This document shows positions 1-5,685 of a DNA stretch of 64,000 nt, piece by piece. This stretch comes from Enterobacteria phage T6, in sequence record MH550421, one strand, 5' to 3'. Under the pieces are notes generated by a model, which was not told where the DNA came from, did no database searches, and saw only the letters and a list, made by a program, of their open reading frames with translations. A program made the translations under genes and the position numbers. Each line of letters opens with the position of its first letter. Position 1 is the stretch's first letter.

Positions 1-479
1 TCTTCCACAAGCTTTCTTCGCGAAGGGGTCGACAAACCCATGAAAGGGGTATACCCTGCTGTACCAAGGACAACAATCTGCTTGAAACTGGCATATGACA
101 TTCCGATAAGCTGTTCAAATTCTGCTTGGAAATCTTTACTGCTGGCAGATTCATTAAGACGTGTACCGTTAACGGTGATTTCAAAAACGTTCGGTTTTTG
201 TCCTCTTTTGATATAGTACTTTTTCTCATCATATTCCATCCACAGTTCAACTAAAAGTTCTTTCTTATTTGTGCTGTTTATTAATTGACCTTTCTTTACA
301 TCACGAAATGGCTTACCAAAAAGCCCAAATGTGATGGCTTCTAGCATAGTAGACTTACCACCGCCATTTCGTCCAGTAATAAGAGTTTTTTGAACCTTAT
401 CTAATTGAATGTCAACTCCATTTTGACCAACTGACATTATATTTTTATATTTTACTCTATTAAGTTTAAATGATTTCAT
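1..479 (-). CDS. 46: Recombination endonuclease subunit gp46 (SbcC/Rad50-like ATPase), N-terminal part; gene continues beyond window start
   Basis: Reverse-strand translation from ATG at 479 reads MKSFKLNRVKYKNIMSVGQNG... with Walker A GRNGGGKST; matches T4 gp46 N-terminus from memory. Confidence 0.9.
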   Translation of the reverse strand, partial: MKSFKLNRVKYKNIMSVGQNGVDIQLDKVQKTLITGRNGGGKSTMLEAITFGLFGKPFRDVKKGQLINSTNKKELLVELWMEYDEKKYYIKRGQKPNVFEITVNGTRLNESASSKDFQAEFEQLIGMSYASFKQIVVLGTAGYTPFMGLSTPSRRKLVE

Positions 480-494
480 TTTGTATCCAATTGT

Positions 495-1349
495 TCACAA
501 TGAAGAAAATTCTTTAACTAAAGCCTGTAATGAAGCCTCTATTGGATATCCATTCTTAACTAACATTTTCCTAAACATCACATGTTTAGGACGATTATAT
601 GATATCCACAATTCATACAATTTATCTTTATTATCCCAATGATAGCCTTTTCGTCGAGATGCTATATGAGCTTTTCTAATCTCCGGATTTTTCCAACTAG
701 CAGCTACTGAATTTGATATAGCTATTTTATATTCAGGTTTTGATAAAGCAGCACGAACAGCCTTTTGGTGTTTAATTTTATTTTCTTCGTTATTAAACCA
801 TTCCTTTGAAGCCATTGAAATTTTTTGTTTTGTTTTAAAATTATTTAATCTTTCTTTGTTATCTTTCCTATTTTTTGCTACTGAAAAATATTTTAATGCC
901 CTTTCTCTAGCAGCATTTCTATTTTGCGGATTTGAATAATACTGTTGAAGCCTTTTTGATATTGTGTCGCTTACATCTTGTTTTATAAAACTATATTCAG
1001 CAGCTATTAAATCAACTTCGGCTAAAGATAAATTTTTATATGTTTTTCCTGACATCATTCTATTTAAAGCATTTAGCATTTTTCCATTTTTACCTTTTGC
1101 TAATAAGAAATGTGCTTTAAAATGATTAAAATGACTTAAATTAACTAAATTCCATGTAGATTTTAAATATTCAGGAAATATTGATTTAGGAAGCACGTGG
1201 TGTGCTTCCGTTTTACCTGGAGTTTTAACAGTTGAATTCATAGAAATAAAATTAATGTAAGACTTGGCGTCTTCTTCACTCAACGCTAATTTTTCAACTA
1301 ATTCCTTTATTAAAAATTCATCATTAATGTCAAGTTTAAAATTCTTCAC
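495..1349 (-). CDS. HNH-family homing endonuclease (mob-like), free-standing between genes 47 and 46
   Basis: 284 aa ORF with HNH-type motif EAHHVLPKS...NLVNLSHFNHFKAH; lysine-rich C-terminal half typical of mob/seg DNA-binding tails. Confidence 0.75.
   Translation of the reverse strand: MKNFKLDINDEFLIKELVEKLALSEEDAKSYINFISMNSTVKTPGKTEAHHVLPKSIFPEYLKSTWNLVNLSHFNHFKAHFLLAKGKNGKMLNALNRMMSGKTYKNLSLAEVDLIAAEYSFIKQDVSDTISKRLQQYYSNPQNRNAARERALKYFSVAKNRKDNKERLNNFKTKQKISMASKEWFNNEENKIKHQKAVRAALSKPEYKIAISNSVAASWKNPEIRKAHIASRRKGYHWDNKDKLYELWISYNRPKHVMFRKMLVKNGYPIEASLQALVKEFSSL
1315..1333. repeat. 19-bp direct repeat copy 1 (aattcatcattaatgtcaa), at the start of the HNH gene
   Basis: Exact match with 1518-1536; read directly from sequence. 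Confidence 0.8.
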
Positions 1350-1609
1350 AAAAGATTCCTTTTAATGTATCTTTTAGACCATTCTATCATATCATCATAA
1401 TCTAAAAAGTATTCATCAAATTCAGCCATGCAAACAACGCCTTGTGCTGAATTTGATGTGATATAAATTATTCCAACATATCTAGAATCTTCTTCGGTAT
1501 AATCAATATTTGCTATGAATTCATCATTAATGTCAAATGTCGAAAACTTCACAGTATGCATCCTTAATACAAGATACAGCCATATCTCGCAATGATTTAG
1601 GTGTGTCAT
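1346..1609 (-). CDS. Hypothetical small protein; N-terminus (KFSTFDINDEF) resembles the HNH ORF start
   Basis: 87 aa ORF, stop overlaps HNH start (ATGA); overlaps neighbour ORF 1533-1796 in another frame, so the true start is uncertain. Confidence 0.35.
   Translation of the reverse strand: MTHLNHCEIWLYLVLRMHTVKFSTFDINDEFIANIDYTEEDSRYVGIIYITSNSAQGVVCMAEFDEYFLDYDDMIEWSKRYIKRNLL
1518..1536. repeat. 19-bp direct repeat copy 2
   Basis: Exact match with 1315-1333. Confidence 0.8.
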
Positions 1610-1796
1610 TATCTAAAATGTTGAAGTTAAAAGATACAGCCCAATCAGTGCAGACCGTAACCTTTTTAATACAATTATCTTCAACCTCTAGTGGTTCAAA
1701 CCAGTATTCAATAATTTCTTTATGACCAATATCATCTTTTACTTCGCATTCAAAATGCTGACTCATCATAACATTTTTAAATTCATCAAAAGTCAT
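1533..1796 (-). CDS. Hypothetical acidic small protein
   Basis: 87 aa ORF, start overlaps gene 47 stop (ATGA coupling). Confidence 0.45.
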   Translation of the reverse strand: MTFDEFKNVMMSQHFECEVKDDIGHKEIIEYWFEPLEVEDNCIKKVTVCTDWAVSFNFNILDNDTPKSLRDMAVSCIKDAYCEVFDI

Positions 1797-2812
1797 TGTG
1801 TTGCCTCTACATATAGCTGATTTGCATATTGAATAAGTGCTTCACGGTCAGAATCAGTGATGTCTGGAATTGCATTAATATACTCTTCCATTAATGTCTG
1901 AAGCGATTGAACTTCAACTTCTTCACTATCATCTGACTCGACAGAGTTATCAATCTTTGACACAACTCGTAATGAATGCACAACTTTCTCTAGTTCAGAT
2001 TCGAACTTCGTCAGATTTTTGTCTATTTCAGTTACTATAACACGTACTGATAGATTTGTAAAATCTTTATAGTCAATTTTTCCTTTAAATGGATAATGAA
2101 TTCTACGATGCCAGGTAGTATTGTTTGGAATAAATTCCATTCGTTCTGTTTCTGTATCAAACATCCAGAACCCACGAGGGTCATTCTCGTCACCGGCAGT
2201 TAGTGTCCATGGTGTCCCAATATATCTGACGTTAGCAGCCTCAGAAATAGTATGGAAGTGACCAGACCACACTTCTTTATAAGTCTTAAGGAAATCAGGT
2301 TCAAGACCGTGAGATTTCATTCCTTTATAAAAATAAAATCCATTCAATTCCCAGTGACCAACACAAAAAGAAGCAGATGAAGTTTTGATATGCTCAAGAA
2401 TTTCACCAGTATTTTCTTCGCACATCCAAGGAATTAAATCAATCAAACACCCGTCAAAATCTACTGTAGTAGGCTTATCATATACTTTAACATTAGGATA
2501 TTTAGCCAAAAGCTCAGTAGAGGCATTTGGAGTTAAAGTATTTTTAAAGTGCATATCATGGTTTCCTACAACAGTATGTAGGGTAATACCAGCATCATCA
2601 AGCATTTGAACTATTTCACGAGCAAACTCCATAGTTTTATGCGTGATTGCTTTTCGCACATCAAAAATATCGCCGTATTGAATCCAGGTAGTAATTCCAT
2701 TTTTCTTAGAATATTCTATCGCTTGCTTAATTCCATCCAGCTGAATGGATTGAACCCACTCATCATCGGCTTTAACGCCTAAATGCCAATCACCTAAATT
2801 TAAAATTTTCAT
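1793..2812 (-). CDS. 47: Recombination nuclease subunit gp47 (SbcD/Mre11-like)
   Basis: 339 aa; calcineurin-like phosphoesterase motifs LGDWHLG and VVGNHDMHF; length and sequence match T4 gp47 from memory. Confidence 0.92.
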   Translation of the reverse strand: MKILNLGDWHLGVKADDEWVQSIQLDGIKQAIEYSKKNGITTWIQYGDIFDVRKAITHKTMEFAREIVQMLDDAGITLHTVVGNHDMHFKNTLTPNASTELLAKYPNVKVYDKPTTVDFDGCLIDLIPWMCEENTGEILEHIKTSSASFCVGHWELNGFYFYKGMKSHGLEPDFLKTYKEVWSGHFHTISEAANVRYIGTPWTLTAGDENDPRGFWMFDTETERMEFIPNNTTWHRRIHYPFKGKIDYKDFTNLSVRVIVTEIDKNLTKFESELEKVVHSLRVVSKIDNSVESDDSEEVEVQSLQTLMEEYINAIPDITDSDREALIQYANQLYVEATQ

Positions 2813-2972
2813 ATATCAAGAACCGTCATTGAAATGCAAAATAAAATTATTGAAATAAATCCATCTAGAGTACTAAAGAACCCAATCCAACATGCTCTAG
2901 TGAATAGATAAAATGCAAGAAAAAGTATCACATATCCAAGAAATATCATTATATCAAACTCCGTATAAAGCT

Positions 2973-2990
2973 AAAGGGCCGAAGCCCTTT
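2973..2990 (-). terminator. GC hairpin with tetraloop (GGGC-UUCG-GCCC on the transcript) at the a-gt 3' end
   Basis: Inverted repeat aaagggccgaagcccttt overlapping the a-gt stop codon; only a weak U tract follows. Confidence 0.4.
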
Positions 2991-4191
2991 ATTTTGTAAT
3001 AATGTCAAACTGTTCTTTAAAGCAGAAGCTTGAATCTTGATGTTGATACAAAAATTCATATGCTTTTTCTCGCTCACGGTCATAAAGAGCTCGGTCAGAT
3101 GACAGTTCTTTAATACGTTCAAATGTTGATTCCATGTCATTTTCATCAAACCAAATGATACCGCTATCATGCGAGGTCAAAGGAGTATTATCAACACGGA
3201 ATTTTAAATTTTCGCCAGTAGATTTCCAAAATGCCGGAATTGTTCCACATGCACCAAGCTCGAGATGAGTATATTCGAGTGAGCGTTGTAAGTATTTCTG
3301 GTTAAGTTTACTCAACTGATATCCAAAGCCAGATTTACTCATTCGTTCAAGCATTTCACTATTAATATAACAATCTAGGATTTGTGCCGGTTGATTTGGC
3401 GCGAGATTCATTTTATCAATCTCACGATTACCGTAATATTCATACGGAATACCTTTTTCCTTAATTGCAATAAAAGCAGGGGAACGTTCAAGACCTTCCA
3501 TTACAGTGGATTTACCAGCAGGTTTTAAGAATTTTTCATGAAAATCAAACATCTGATAAAAACCTTTCCATGTAGTCGTACGACCAATCCAACGGTTGAT
3601 ATTCATGTTAATTTCAGAAACATCTTTCCAGTAGGTTGATCGAACCTTCGCAATATCCATAGGAGGCTGAAAGTTATATACTGTCGGTGCTTCTTCAATA
3701 TCATCAAACAGAGAAACAGTTTCTGGATACCATTCTTTCATCAGAACTTTATTAAAATCACCATTATCAGAATGGCTAAAAATAACATCAGCTCGACGAA
3801 CAGTTTCTTCTAATCCCAAATTTCGACGCAAAGAAAGAACAGAATGATCATGCTGATAAACTACAACACGAATAGAAGGTTTAATATTATCTAAAAGTTT
3901 TTTATAGTTATTAATCGTGGCTTCTTGAACGGAAGTAGCAGGAACAGAATTAATAATTAGAATATCACAATCATTAATCAGTTTAAGTGCTTTATCGTAT
4001 TCTTTAGCTAAAATAACTGGAATTGAAAATGATTTGTGGTCATGAGAACTTGTACGAGTAAATGATTTATCTTTAGCATAAACCAAAGTTACTTCATGAC
4101 CATTTTTAATAAACCAATCACGTTGCTCAAGAGAAAATTTAGTTACACCACAGCCTTCAAGACCTCGAGCCATAAAAATACATACTTTCAT
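2989..4191 (-). CDS. agt: DNA alpha-glucosyltransferase
   Basis: 400 aa; translation MKVCIFMARGLEGCGVTKFSLEQRDWFIKNGHEV... is near-identical to T4 alpha-glucosyltransferase as remembered. Confidence 0.95.
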   Translation of the reverse strand: MKVCIFMARGLEGCGVTKFSLEQRDWFIKNGHEVTLVYAKDKSFTRTSSHDHKSFSIPVILAKEYDKALKLINDCDILIINSVPATSVQEATINNYKKLLDNIKPSIRVVVYQHDHSVLSLRRNLGLEETVRRADVIFSHSDNGDFNKVLMKEWYPETVSLFDDIEEAPTVYNFQPPMDIAKVRSTYWKDVSEINMNINRWIGRTTTWKGFYQMFDFHEKFLKPAGKSTVMEGLERSPAFIAIKEKGIPYEYYGNREIDKMNLAPNQPAQILDCYINSEMLERMSKSGFGYQLSKLNQKYLQRSLEYTHLELGACGTIPAFWKSTGENLKFRVDNTPLTSHDSGIIWFDENDMESTFERIKELSSDRALYDREREKAYEFLYQHQDSSFCFKEQFDIITK

Positions 4192-4638: not shown

Positions 4639-4924
4639 CAATCATATCCTCAATCTGCGATCTAGTAGTCTTCCAAAGAATACTGATGAGTTCATCGTTA
4701 TATGGCTGTTTTAGAATATCCCGACTTTTCTTGATAGCATATTCGTATTGAGCAAAATTATTATTTTCAGCTGCGATCTGAGCGTGCTTATAAAGACGAT
4801 TCAGTTCGCGTTTGTTTTTAGACAATAACTTATTTGCTTTTCTTTCTGCTTCAAGACGGTTCTTTTCTTCAATAGAAGAAATAAGCTTTTCCACTTCATC
4901 ATTAATTTCGGGTTTATCAGTCAT
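4607..4924 (-). CDS. Hypothetical protein, predicted coiled-coil
   Basis: 105 aa ORF, lysine/glutamate-rich helical sequence. Confidence 0.55.
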   Translation of the reverse strand: MTDKPEINDEVEKLISSIEEKNRLEAERKANKLLSKNKRELNRLYKHAQIAAENNNFAQYEYAIKKSRDILKQPYNDELISILWKTTRSQIEDMIDAYTRKIQAS

Positions 4925-4925
4925 A

Positions 4926-5144
4926 TTATTTCTCTAATATAAAATAAAAATCATCATCTGTTAAATGATACCGATAGTTTAATTCTACACCATTAGATTT
5001 AAAAGCGGTATCATACGGATTTTCTGGATCAATATCAATGTCAAGAGCTAAAACTTCCCTGAGATACATTTTAAGTAAATAGGGAATAGCTTCAACTTCA
5101 GGTATTTCTTCCAAGAATCCGGAGAGGTTAATCGTTAGCCTCAT
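4926..5144 (-). CDS. Hypothetical acidic small protein
   Basis: 72 aa ORF, tightly packed between neighbours. Confidence 0.5.
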
Positions 5145-5685
5145 ATAAAAAATCCAAACTAGGAGAATCGTCTACAACACTTTTCTTTTCAGCCCCCGGT
5201 GTTCTATAGGTTGATTCTTCGTAATGCGTCATTTTATCATAGATGTCTTGAATAAAAGTTTCATCTACTAACGCAACCATATCGTCGTCACGACTGTCAT
5301 AGACATTGTGAACGAAGTAACTATATTTCTTTGCAACTTCCTTACGTTCTTTTTTAATACGTTGGACGAATGCATTAAAACAAGCTTGAGTTATATACGC
5401 ATGTGGGTTTTTATATTTCGTTTCATCAAAATTATGAAGCCCCTTAATAGAAGCTTCTATACCATCTGCAATCATTTCTTGTTTCCAAGACTGGGTATAT
5501 CCTGAAAAGTTGAAACGTTTAGATAAGCCTTCTGCAATAAGCATAATGGCTAATCCGATAGTATCATTTTGACGAACTACTTTATTTGGGTCTTTATTAT
5601 TTGCTAATTCTGTTTTCCAATCAATAATAGCTTGTAAAAGCTCTTTATTGTTTACGTAATTATATTTAGGCTTAGTTTCTGACAT
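5128..5685 (-). CDS. 55: Late-transcription sigma factor gp55
   Basis: Translation [24 protein letters not shown]... (185 aa from the internal Met) matches T4 gp55 from memory; the ORF track start at 5691 adds two residues. Confidence 0.9.

Follow-up and report, generated by a model that had tools for sequence, protein, structure and literature searches.

A predicted Mob-like HNH homing-endonuclease gene in phage T6 lies within the 5' coding end of gene 46 and takes over its start region

Comparison of a 64,000-nucleotide stretch of Enterobacteria phage T6 (sequence record MH550421; hereafter the window) with T4 and related phages reveals that an HNH open reading frame (ORF) of T6 has taken over the ribosome-binding site, the GTG start codon and the first six codons (MKNFKL) of the recombination gene 46. 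The ORF, which the first-pass annotation had recognised as an HNH gene, lies on the minus strand at 495..1349, encodes 284 amino acids from a GTG start and is intact in T6. Judged by its sequence, it is a free-standing HNH homing-endonuclease gene (HEG). Our preferred reading, which we consider likely, is that a Mob-like HEG sits within the coding sequence of gene 46 at its 5' end, has captured the start of that gene and is linked to a particular version of its codons 6-21. The comparisons below draw on 13 aligned genomes and on summary counts from BLAST searches.

The assignment of the T6 ORF to the Mob-like HNH family combines the catalytic motif with PHROG and BLAST matches. The motif HH...N...H...H spans residues 50-80 (1110..1202, minus strand), and in an alignment of eight proteins with 25-43% identity to T6 the residues H50, H51, N67, H76 and H80 are invariant. 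The protein matches PHROG 655 'homing endonuclease' with E = 3.2e-45 and also PHROG 12434 'HNH endonuclease' with E = 1.1e-15, and its RefSeq product name is 'homing endonuclease'. In tblastn searches the annotated genes recovered were a MobD-like gene (44%), mobC (36%), mobD (30%) and mobE (28-31%). The nearest named relatives are T4 MobD, MobC and MobB, which share the HNH motif with the T6 protein (MobD matches at 30% over 83% of the query) but occupy other loci, namely nrdC.11/mobD.1, nrdG/nrdD and a-gt/a-gt.2. The mobility of these three is listed as not determined in a review by Edgell (PMC2988022), and the literature that we searched describes no start-codon capture for them. Among curated HNH domain models no Pfam HNH family matched at E <= 0.1 and no NCBIfam model matched, a PDB sequence search returned no solved relative, and a scan of IMG/VR gave 0 confirmed relatives. 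A word-indexed protein search found 6 matches, too few for a deep alignment. AlphaFold2 models of the protein were of low confidence (pLDDT of 41 with the sequence by itself and 50 with an alignment of 6 sequences); the strands at 52-54 and 68-70 and the helix at 73-85 in the low-confidence model fit the topology of a beta-beta-alpha metal finger.

Relative to T4-type empty sites, T6 carries an insert of 870 bp (462-1331) that follows codon 6, or the first 18 bases, of gene 46. The T6 and T4 sequences are the same up to GTGAAGAATTTTAAACTT and the same again from TTTAAACTTAATAGA, and the insert junctions are identical across the 6 HEG-plus and 7 HEG-less genomes of the 13-genome alignment. The original gene 46 start, GTGAAGAATTTTAAACTT (1332..1349, minus strand), is identical to that of T4 and now forms HNH codons 1-6. 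It overlaps the stop codon of gene 46.1 (GTGA), runs on from the 3' end of 46.1 in T4 and in all empty sites of our alignments, and is annotated in a T4 GenBank entry as 'g46 (gtg start codon)'. The Shine-Dalgarno sequence AGGA at 1357..1360 (minus strand) belongs to gene 46 in T4; T4 and T6 are the same up to the junction, and in T6 this AGGA presumably acts as the ribosome-binding site for the HNH ORF.

Gene 46, which encodes a Rad50/SbcC-like recombination nuclease subunit, is represented in the window by its 5' part (1..479, minus strand), which runs off the window edge and matches at 100% the T6 records with a gp46/SbcC-like annotation. In T6 it begins at a new ATG within a cassette-borne replacement start, ATGAAATCATTTAAACTT (462..479, minus strand), identified in the T6/T4 and 13-genome alignments. 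Between the HNH stop codon and this ATG lies a 15-nt spacer, ACAATTGGATACAAA (480..494, minus strand), that is not found in T4 and that contains, 6 nt upstream of the new ATG, a weak Shine-Dalgarno-like GGA triplet, a candidate ribosome-binding site for gene 46. The two copies of the start, at 1332-1349 and 462-479, match at 13 of 18 positions with the last 9 bases identical, and TTTAAACTT is the stretch common to both. The portion ATGAAATCATTTAAA of the replacement start recurs without change at the start of gene 46 in Mosigvirus AV110. The six replacement codons are near-synonymous, altering the N-terminus of gp46 from MKNFKL to MKSFKL. Gene 46 stays whole because the HNH stop codon and the spacer are followed, at the end of the cassette, by a fresh ATG and six codons.

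The peptide matches listed in the first-pass annotation are all present: the HNH protein starts MKNFKLDINDEF, the adjoining ORF contains KFSTFDINDEF, and gp46 starts MKSFKL at 479. Its proposal that the start region of the invaded gene was duplicated and re-used is borne out by the T6/T4 and 13-genome alignments. The target that it had pictured was an intergenic junction, and the insert lies instead inside the 5' coding end of gene 46. A transposon-like target-site duplication can also be discarded, since the exact 19-bp repeat described below does not flank the insert; the imperfect 18-nt duplicate that does is coding sequence and encodes a working replacement start. The first-pass annotation had genes 47 and 46 abutting in T4, where the order is in fact 47, 46.2, 46.1, 46. 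An HNH gene and two short ORFs do separate 47 from 46 in T6, as first described, but the short ORFs are the native genes 46.1 and 46.2 and were not inserted. Gene 46.1 (1346..1552, minus strand; DUF5487, Pfam E = 1.8e-48) and gene 46.2 (1533..1796, minus strand; T4_Y03C family, Pfam E = 2.6e-43) are both conserved T4 genes, as annotated in T4, and both lie outside the insertion. Gene 46.1 occurs in 712 phage records. The upstream neighbour, gene 47, encodes an Mre11/SbcD-like subunit (1793..2812, minus strand).

The T6-type HEG was found in 70 of about 517 Tequatrovirus records, in one arrangement in all of them, and T4 is without it; the arrangement is therefore not an ancestral state conserved across these records. 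Contiguous empty sites number 433, and the flanks of the locus are 97-100% identical between carriers and empty-site genomes, in agreement with the original suggestion of a free-standing homing endonuclease that is variably inserted.

Carriers also share a distinctive version of gene 46 codons 6-21 (416..462, minus strand), which we call allele A and regard as a candidate target and immunity segment. Of its 47 bases, 14 are unlike those of the most common empty-site allele (allele B, YQNIMSVGGNP). When 6 HEG-plus genomes were compared with 4 empty genomes carrying allele B over the aligned window positions 1-2900, no fixed differences other than these 14 substitutions were seen. Allele A is present in 70 of 70 carriers at an identity of at least 98.6%, and allele B, the majority form, is present in about 372 empty-site records. 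Some 74 HEG-less genomes, T4 among them, carry the 'immune' allele A, so that the change could have run either way, with a T4-type site gaining the insert or a T6-type site losing it.

The same locus is occupied in two related genera. Paralogues with 42-44% identity lie between genes 47 and 46 in pEK20 (Mosigvirus) and in Melville and CF-SP2 (Gelderlandvirus). Like the T6 HEG, the 'MobD-like homing endonuclease' of pEK20 and the HEG of Melville/CF-SP2 are patchily distributed (5 of 16 Gelderlandvirus genomes have the HEG at this locus) and have a recoded gene 46 5' end downstream. The codon at which this divergent block of gene 46 starts varies by genus; as in T6, the block ends at codon 21 in both Mosigvirus and Gelderlandvirus. 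Over codons 4-21 the HEG-carrying Melville is 54% identical to the HEG-less S16 and 83% identical to HEG-carrying T6; over codons 22-156 it is 96% identical to S16 and 71% identical to T6. The incongruence is weak in Mosigvirus, where codons 4-21 are 80% identical within the genus versus 76% to T6. The HEG-linked recoding and the presence of same-locus paralogues with similarly recoded gene 46 starts suggest that codons 6-21 are likely to be both the target and the immunity region of the HEG.

A classical insertion-site arrangement would assign the target differently. The enzyme would recognize the uninterrupted T4-type junction (GTGAAGAATTTTAAACTT joined to AATAGAGTA...), the insert would split this site and render T6 immune, and allele B would be an escape variant that has spread. 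The near identity of T4-type and T6 sequences on the two flanks (no differences in 60 positions and 2 in 70) is compatible with such a site, as is the predominance of allele B, which would be expected were resistance favoured. However, the new gene 46 start of T6 retains intact all sequence beginning 9 nt before the junction, so that self-immunity of T6 would hang on a few upstream bases. Moreover, the B-type sequence diverges together with the rest of gene 46 in three genera, whereas the A-type sequence is incongruent and moves with the HEG, which makes allele B look ancestral rather than derived. We therefore regard the insertion-site reading as rather doubtful.

We also weighed the opposite history, in which the HNH gene is ancestral at the locus and the empty sites, including that of T4, are deletions. 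Recombination between the two copies of TTTAAACTT would restore the exact T4 sequence, HEG-less allele-A genomes do exist, including an intermediate GGGGTT form, and the HEG is decaying in several lineages, with independent frameshifts in T2 (-2 nt), in RB51/RB68/Ac3 (-1 nt) and in MLP2 (-1 nt); the CF-SP2 gene is also frameshifted. This history is nonetheless improbable, because the allele-B empty sites are impossible to reach by deletion from the T6 arrangement. Carriers are in addition a minority of the records, their HNH sequences hardly differ (6-9 substitutions in 855 nt), which suggests recent spread, and presence is patchy in Gelderlandvirus as well. We consider it more improbable still that the T6 protein has been domesticated and is no longer selfish, serving for example in phage competition or in interactions with the host or its defences. 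Most of the 70 carriers have the gene in intact form with 98-100% conservation, and a recent paper (PMC13096335) reports that the T6 homing endonuclease SegB aids immune evasion, but the repeated frameshifts speak against strong selection, and patchy distribution with a tightly linked recoded site is the usual mark of a HEG.

The HEGs of the three genera differ in how they use upstream sequence. Each of the paralogues borrows its start context, that of pEK20 comprising the first 7 codons of 46.1 and that of Melville an ATGA in which the HEG overlaps the stop codon of gene 47. In pEK20 and Melville/CF-SP2 the HEG runs at its 3' end into the start of gene 46, and 46.1 has been replaced or is missing; T6, by contrast, keeps 46.1 intact, the leader of its HEG is a mosaic of 46 and 46.1 codons, and the spacer precedes the new start. 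Two further likenesses, between the T6 spacer and the 3' end of Mosigvirus 46.1 (GGATACA versus GAATACA) and between the C-termini of the pEK20 HEG and of T4 46.1, were judged too weak to serve as evidence.

The 46.1 component of the T6 leader is seen in a 19-bp exact direct repeat, TTGACATTAATGATGAATT. Copy 1 (1315..1333, minus strand) covers the end of HNH codon 6 and codons 7-12 (DINDEF), and copy 2 (1518..1536, minus strand) covers codons 7-12 of gene 46.1, where it is native. At 78% identity the repeat can be followed over 45 nt. No longer exact direct repeat occurs in window positions 1-3000, and its length is beyond chance, as 0 of 1000 first-order Markov simulations reached 19 (the maximum was 18). 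The 19 bases of copy 2 are identical in T4 and in the HEG-less phages HY01 and fPS-2, and other empty-site phages vary from them at one third-codon base only (AAT to AAC or AAG). The first-pass annotation had correctly described the repeat as exact, at 1315-1333 and 1518-1536, but the two copies, spaced by 203 bp, bracket gene 46.1 and neither the 5' end of the HNH gene nor the insert. The position of the repeat excludes a target-site duplication: it is sequence from the 5' end of 46.1, native in T4 and in HEG-less phages.

The repeat is probably left over from a stage at which the HEG was joined to the first codons of 46.1. The HEG of pEK20, which opens with the first 7 codons of Mosigvirus 46.1, the rest of 46.1 being replaced, provides a direct precedent for such a fusion in a same-locus paralogue, and the N-terminus of the T6 HNH protein is about 12 residues longer than in the same-locus paralogues, which counts against explanations that dispense with a fusion. 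Short-patch gene conversion from 46.1 after insertion, or a shared translation-initiation context that keeps the sequences similar, could also account for the repeat. The copies are near each other and in the same codon register, and the start regions of 46.1 and 46 are already alike (TGTGAAG...). The postulated ancestor, with 46.1 codons 1-12 joined directly to the HEG, is absent from the Tequatrovirus-like records, all 70 carriers giving a two-piece match. Against this, no significant RNA structure or other known signal was found over the repeat, and with the Mosigvirus precedent we find a history without fusion possible but the less convincing of the two.

Under our preferred reading, the HEG would at an earlier stage have been fused to the first 12 codons of 46.1, the remainder of that gene being replaced, an arrangement that the Mosigvirus paralogue shows today. 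Later recombination between the start regions of 46.1 and 46 (TGTGAAG..., with a TT microhomology joint) would have placed the HEG behind an intact 46.1. The enzyme would now be made from upstream transcripts by translation coupled to 46.1. During mixed infection it would nick or cut the gene 46 5' region of allele-B phages, by analogy with the action of MobE on the downstream nrdB, and recombinational repair would then copy both the HEG and codons 6-21, whose recoded form is presumably resistant to cutting. T4-type genomes, which have the immune-like allele and no HEG, may have arisen by deletion or repair through the duplicated TTTAAACTT.

A search of the insert for promoters found neither a TATAAATA late promoter nor a middle promoter with a strict MotA box. 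One candidate inside the HNH ORF, TGCTTTA...TATAAA, was rejected as it breaks the TAnnnT rule for the -10 element. Predicted RNA hairpins masking either start were not significant (z-scores of 0.08 and -0.47). The literature that we searched contains no description of the T6 47-46 junction and no published cleavage or inheritance results for the HNH gene; Petrov et al. (2010) give only counts of HNH genes in T2 and T6.

The closest functional parallel is T4 MobE, which lies between nrdA and nrdB, has no promoter of its own and depends on transcription from upstream, and in HEG-less phage introduces a nick into the 5' part of the gene that follows it (PMC2790892). Both MobE and the T6 protein are free-standing Mob-family HNH proteins encoded directly upstream of an important phage gene; mobE gives partial tblastn matches to the T6 sequence, neither of the two promoter motifs searched for was found in the T6 insert, and the linked recoded segment falls near the 5' end of gene 46, which follows the insert. 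The mobE gene sits between two genes, whereas the T6 element sits 18 nt inside a coding sequence, borrowing a start and supplying a replacement. The activity of MobE has been shown experimentally, whereas that of the T6 protein is predicted from its sequence. In fungal mitochondria, endonuclease ORFs in Allomyces atp6 and in Glomus atp6, atp9, cox2 and nad3 are inserted in phase and bring a foreign, diverged gene terminus, which yields a hybrid gene with a terminal duplication (PMC3630166). These are likewise free-standing endonucleases inserted in a coding gene with a replacement for the gene end, although they belong to the LAGLIDADG or GIY-YIG families and not to HNH. The fungal cases are a mirror image of T6: there the C-terminus is replaced and the native one lies unused downstream, and in T6 the six N-terminal codons are replaced and the native ones re-used. 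A HEG likewise lies within the coding region of an important phage gene at T4 39/60 (mobA) and in Aeh1 nrdA (mobE), and there the insertion splits the gene into two separately translated pieces. Gene 46 of T6, unlike these, is kept in one piece by the duplication of its first six codons. The position of mobA at T4 39/60 is given in PMC2988022.

A wider process may be at work, although we put it forward tentatively and think it unlikely: the 47-46 interval may grow by serial 'start capture', in which each cassette would take the start and first codons of the gene that it hits and bring a replacement start, leaving nested N-terminal echoes. The 64-kb window contains just three copies of TGATGAATT (D-E-F), each lying among the first 13 codons of one of three consecutive genes, 46.2 (MTFDEF), 46.1 (VKFSTFDINDEF) and HNH (VKNFKLDINDEF). 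Comparison of S16 with STML-198 shows that 46.1 of Gelderlandvirus is a 203-nt insertion in the start of gene 46, with GTGAAA on one side and ATGAAA on the other. If serial capture is true, the small conserved genes 46.1 and 46.2 would have arrived in the same way as the HEG, and duplicated start regions would be a general substrate for recombination in the gain and loss of cassettes, including the origin of 'immune but HEG-less' genomes such as T4.

The T6 case itself appears to be a tidy and fairly ordinary instance of a HEG settling in T4-like phages. It suggests how a selfish gene may sit inside an important recombination gene without harm, by borrowing the start signals and supplying replacements, and the duplicated start would provide a built-in path to precise loss that may explain the empty, immune-looking site of T4. 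It also yields a testable target prediction for an uncharacterized Mob-family enzyme, namely codons 6-21, with allele B cut and allele A uncut. The movement of a short 5' piece of gene 46 between phage genera along with the HEG would be a case of fine-scale mosaicism and a trap for phylogenies of gp46.

Over its first 3 kb the window is identical (100%) to phage T6 (AP018814/NC_054907) and carries, all on the minus strand, gene 47 (1793-2812), gene 46.2 (1533-1796; Pfam T4_Y03C, E = 2.6e-43), gene 46.1 (1346-1552, with a GTG start; Pfam DUF5487, E = 1.8e-48), an HNH ORF of 284 codons that also starts with GTG (495-1349) and gene 46 (from 479 downward). The first-pass annotation had correctly recognized a homing-endonuclease insertion here but misdescribed its anatomy, assuming that genes 47 and 46 abut in T4 and describing them as separated here by an HNH gene and two short ORFs. 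The order in T4 is 47, 46.2, 46.1, 46; therefore the premise of abutting genes is wrong, and by this order and their Pfam assignments both short ORFs are resident genes that belong to no insertion. The name "XhlA hemolysin" that gene 46.2 bears in T6 records, for which Pfam gave no XhlA match, is probably a mistaken transfer of annotation.

Searches of Pfam, NCBIfam and PDB sequences returned no HNH match for the ORF. Its product matches PHROG 655 "homing endonuclease" (E = 3.2e-45) and PHROG 12434 "HNH endonuclease", and its tblastn relatives are annotated as MobD-like (44%), mobC (36%), mobD (30%) and mobE (28-31%). An alignment of eight proteins revealed invariant His-50, His-51, Asn-67, His-76 and His-80, the HNH signature; AlphaFold2 models (pLDDT 41 and 50) were too poor for use. 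The RefSeq product name is already "homing endonuclease". Together with the junction alignments, these data bear out the insertion of a homing-endonuclease gene (HEG) that re-uses a start peptide. Nearby, T4 carries the HNH gene mobB directly downstream of a-gt (4886-5680 of its extract, L003), and the T6 annotation shows no endonuclease gene at the matching site (5692-5760 of L001); thus Mob-type genes occupy different sites a few kb apart. In phage AndreasVesalius, too, an endonuclease gene abuts the start of a gene for a recombination nuclease: a different "putative homing endonuclease" ORF (L019, 1-263) shares about 20 nt with the gene 47 5' end.

To map the junctions, T6 was aligned to T4 and then to 11 further genomes. 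T6 and the empty sites, which lack the insert, are identical through the 3' end of 46.1 and GTGAAGAATTTTAAACTT. Gene 46 of T4 and of every empty site opens with this 18-mer, its GTG start and codons 1-6 (MKNFKL), whereas T6 has it as codons 1-6 of the HNH ORF, followed by HNH-specific sequence. Beyond the HNH stop, a spacer of 15 nt, ACAATTGGATACAAA, leads to a new start for gene 46, ATGAAATCATTTAAACTT (MKSFKL), past which T6 rejoins T4 at AATAGAGTA. These break points therefore place an 870-bp insert (462-1331) within gene 46, following codon 6. It is flanked by an imperfect duplication of 18 nt that matches at 13 of 18 positions, the last 9 nt (TTTAAACTT) being identical. From gene 46 the HEG takes over the AGGA Shine-Dalgarno sequence, the GTG and the overlap (GTGA) with the 46.1 stop codon, and gene 46 receives an ATG with a weak GGA. 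No late-promoter or strict middle-promoter motif was found in the insert, nor significant RNA structure at the HNH start or the new gene 46 start. MobE is promoterless and is expressed from upstream transcripts (PMC2790892), and the T6 insert fits a promoterless cassette that would likewise be expressed in this way. The T6 spacer (480-494) plus start, GGATACAAAATGAAATCA, resemble the Mosigvirus 46.1-end/46-start junction GAATACATATGAAATCA, and the C terminus of the pEK20 HEG (MRKNLSENI; L004, 2270-2304) resembles that of T4 46.1 (KRNLL); these likenesses, too short for reliance, may be traces of intergenus exchange.

The exact 19-bp direct repeat reported in the first pass is beyond chance (a length of 19 was reached in 0 of 1000 simulations), but its copies bracket 46.1, neither the insert nor, as claimed, the HNH 5' end. 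Both the HNH ORF and 46.1 open with GTG AAG, and in each the repeat makes up codons 7-12 (DINDEF), in identical register. The 46.1 copy is native, being present in T4 and every HEG-less Tequatrovirus examined, identical or one third-codon base off, and the motif is kept in distant 46.1 proteins (MKTFEFNLDDEF in UPEC07, VKLHEFNLGNGW in S16). Compared with its same-locus paralogues, the T6 endonuclease is about 12 residues longer at the N terminus; its leader is thus a mosaic of six gene 46 codons and six 46.1 codons that meet at a TT microhomology. In Mosigvirus the paralogue opens with the first seven codons of the 46.1 of that genus (MTKTDYE) and takes the place of the remainder of 46.1. Given both, we favor the repeat as a relic of an earlier Tequatrovirus-type state in which the HEG would have been joined to 46.1 behind its codon 12. 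The start regions of 46.1 and 46 are similar, and a later recombination between them would have moved the HEG downstream of a complete 46.1. A chimeric probe found no genome with the ancestral fusion in the collection, all 70 carriers having exactly the T6 arrangement, and local gene conversion is a live alternative origin of the repeat. Separately, the 64-kb window contains TGATGAATT (D-E-F) at just three places (1780-1788, 1518-1526 and 1315-1323, minus strand), which fall within codons 1-13 of three consecutive genes, 46.2, 46.1 and HNH. The 46.1 start reads as a gene 46-like GTGAAG followed by 46.2-like ACATTTGA..TGAATT with 9 extra bases, a hint of earlier cycles of start-region duplication.

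At 42-44% identity, the closest paralogues lie at the same locus in Mosigvirus (pEK20: 47, 46.2, HEG, 46) and Gelderlandvirus (Melville and CF-SP2: 47, HEG, 46), with a patchy presence (5 of 16 Gelderlandvirus records). In all three genera gene 46 encodes YQNIMSVGG(N/S)P in HEG-less members and Y(K/S)NIMSVGQ... in carriers, and in each this divergence ends at codon 21. Over codons 4-21 Melville, a carrier, is 54% identical to its HEG-less congener S16 and 83% to T6, whereas over codons 22-156 the values are 96% and 71%. By contrast, B-type sequences (allele B is the commonest empty-site version of codons 6-21) diverge between genera at the pace of the remainder of gene 46. Hence the HEG appears to carry along the first ~21 codons of gene 46, and allele B looks vertically inherited. 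The Mosigvirus signal is weaker, with differences only in codons 12-21. Elsewhere in Gelderlandvirus, genes 47 and 46 of STML-198 abut with a GTGA overlap (L023, 640-800), and S16 (L022, 640-1000) has a 203-nt 46.1 insertion within the start of gene 46, with GTGAAA and ATGAAA on its flanks, so that 46.1 uses the old GTG and gene 46 a new ATG, the architecture of the T6 HNH insertion; the S16 record annotates only a truncated 46.1.

A 160-nt probe of the T4 empty site matched 517 records. The site was contiguous in 433 (about 372 at 90-95% identity, allele B; the rest at least 95%, T4 type) and split into two places in 70, the carriers. The HNH ORF is independently frameshifted in T2 (-2 nt at 740-741), RB51/RB68/Ac3 (-1 nt at 826) and MLP2 (-1 nt at 623). 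A sporadic occurrence, copies that are nearly identical and recurrent decay are typical of the life cycle of a homing-endonuclease gene.

When six carriers were compared with four allele-B empty genomes over aligned window 1-2900, the only fixed differences were 14 substitutions, all in a 47-nt stretch (416-462) immediately downstream of the insert; they turn LNRVRYQNIMSVGGNPI into LNRVKYKNIMSVGQNGV. The carrier version is present at ≥98.6% identity in 70/70 carriers. About 74 HEG-less records, T4 included, have nearly this version, with GGGATT instead of GGAGTT; the HEG-less 235Ecol030PP (L025, 392-470) reads GGGGTT at codons 20-21, between the two. Recombination between the two TTTAAACTT copies would convert the T6 arrangement to the exact T4 sequence, as would break repair via the downstream copy, and T4-type genomes may therefore have arisen through the HEG, as its immune descendants or by-products; just as well, the HEG may have inserted into a T4-type site. 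Two sharp mosaic patches, one in gene 47 (2501-2600), where the 13 aligned genomes form two haplotype groups 15-20% apart, and one in gene 46 (1-100), where 22 of 100 positions separate ime09 and HY01 from T6 over a background of 0-3%, do not correlate with HEG presence. MobE nicks the 5' region of its downstream gene (PMC2790892). By analogy, we infer as the most economical reading that the HEG lineage would target the gene 46 5' region in allele-B genomes, the linked version being immune.

The T6 element would work like the free-standing Mob HEGs of T4, of which MobE is the best studied. HEGs split genes 39/60 of T4 and nrdA of Aeh1, whereas gene 46 of T6 is whole. Fungal mitochondrial endonuclease ORFs insert in phase and supply a replacement C terminus for atp6, atp9, cox2 or nad3 (PMC3630166); the T6 architecture is the mirror image, with the N terminus replaced and the native start re-used by the endonuclease. 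We found no description of the T6 46.1-HNH-46 junction in the searchable literature, and Petrov et al. (2010) only counted the HNH genes of T2 and T6. The junction is unusually neat, and the recoding of gene 46 gives a clear, testable target prediction for an uncharacterized HEG.
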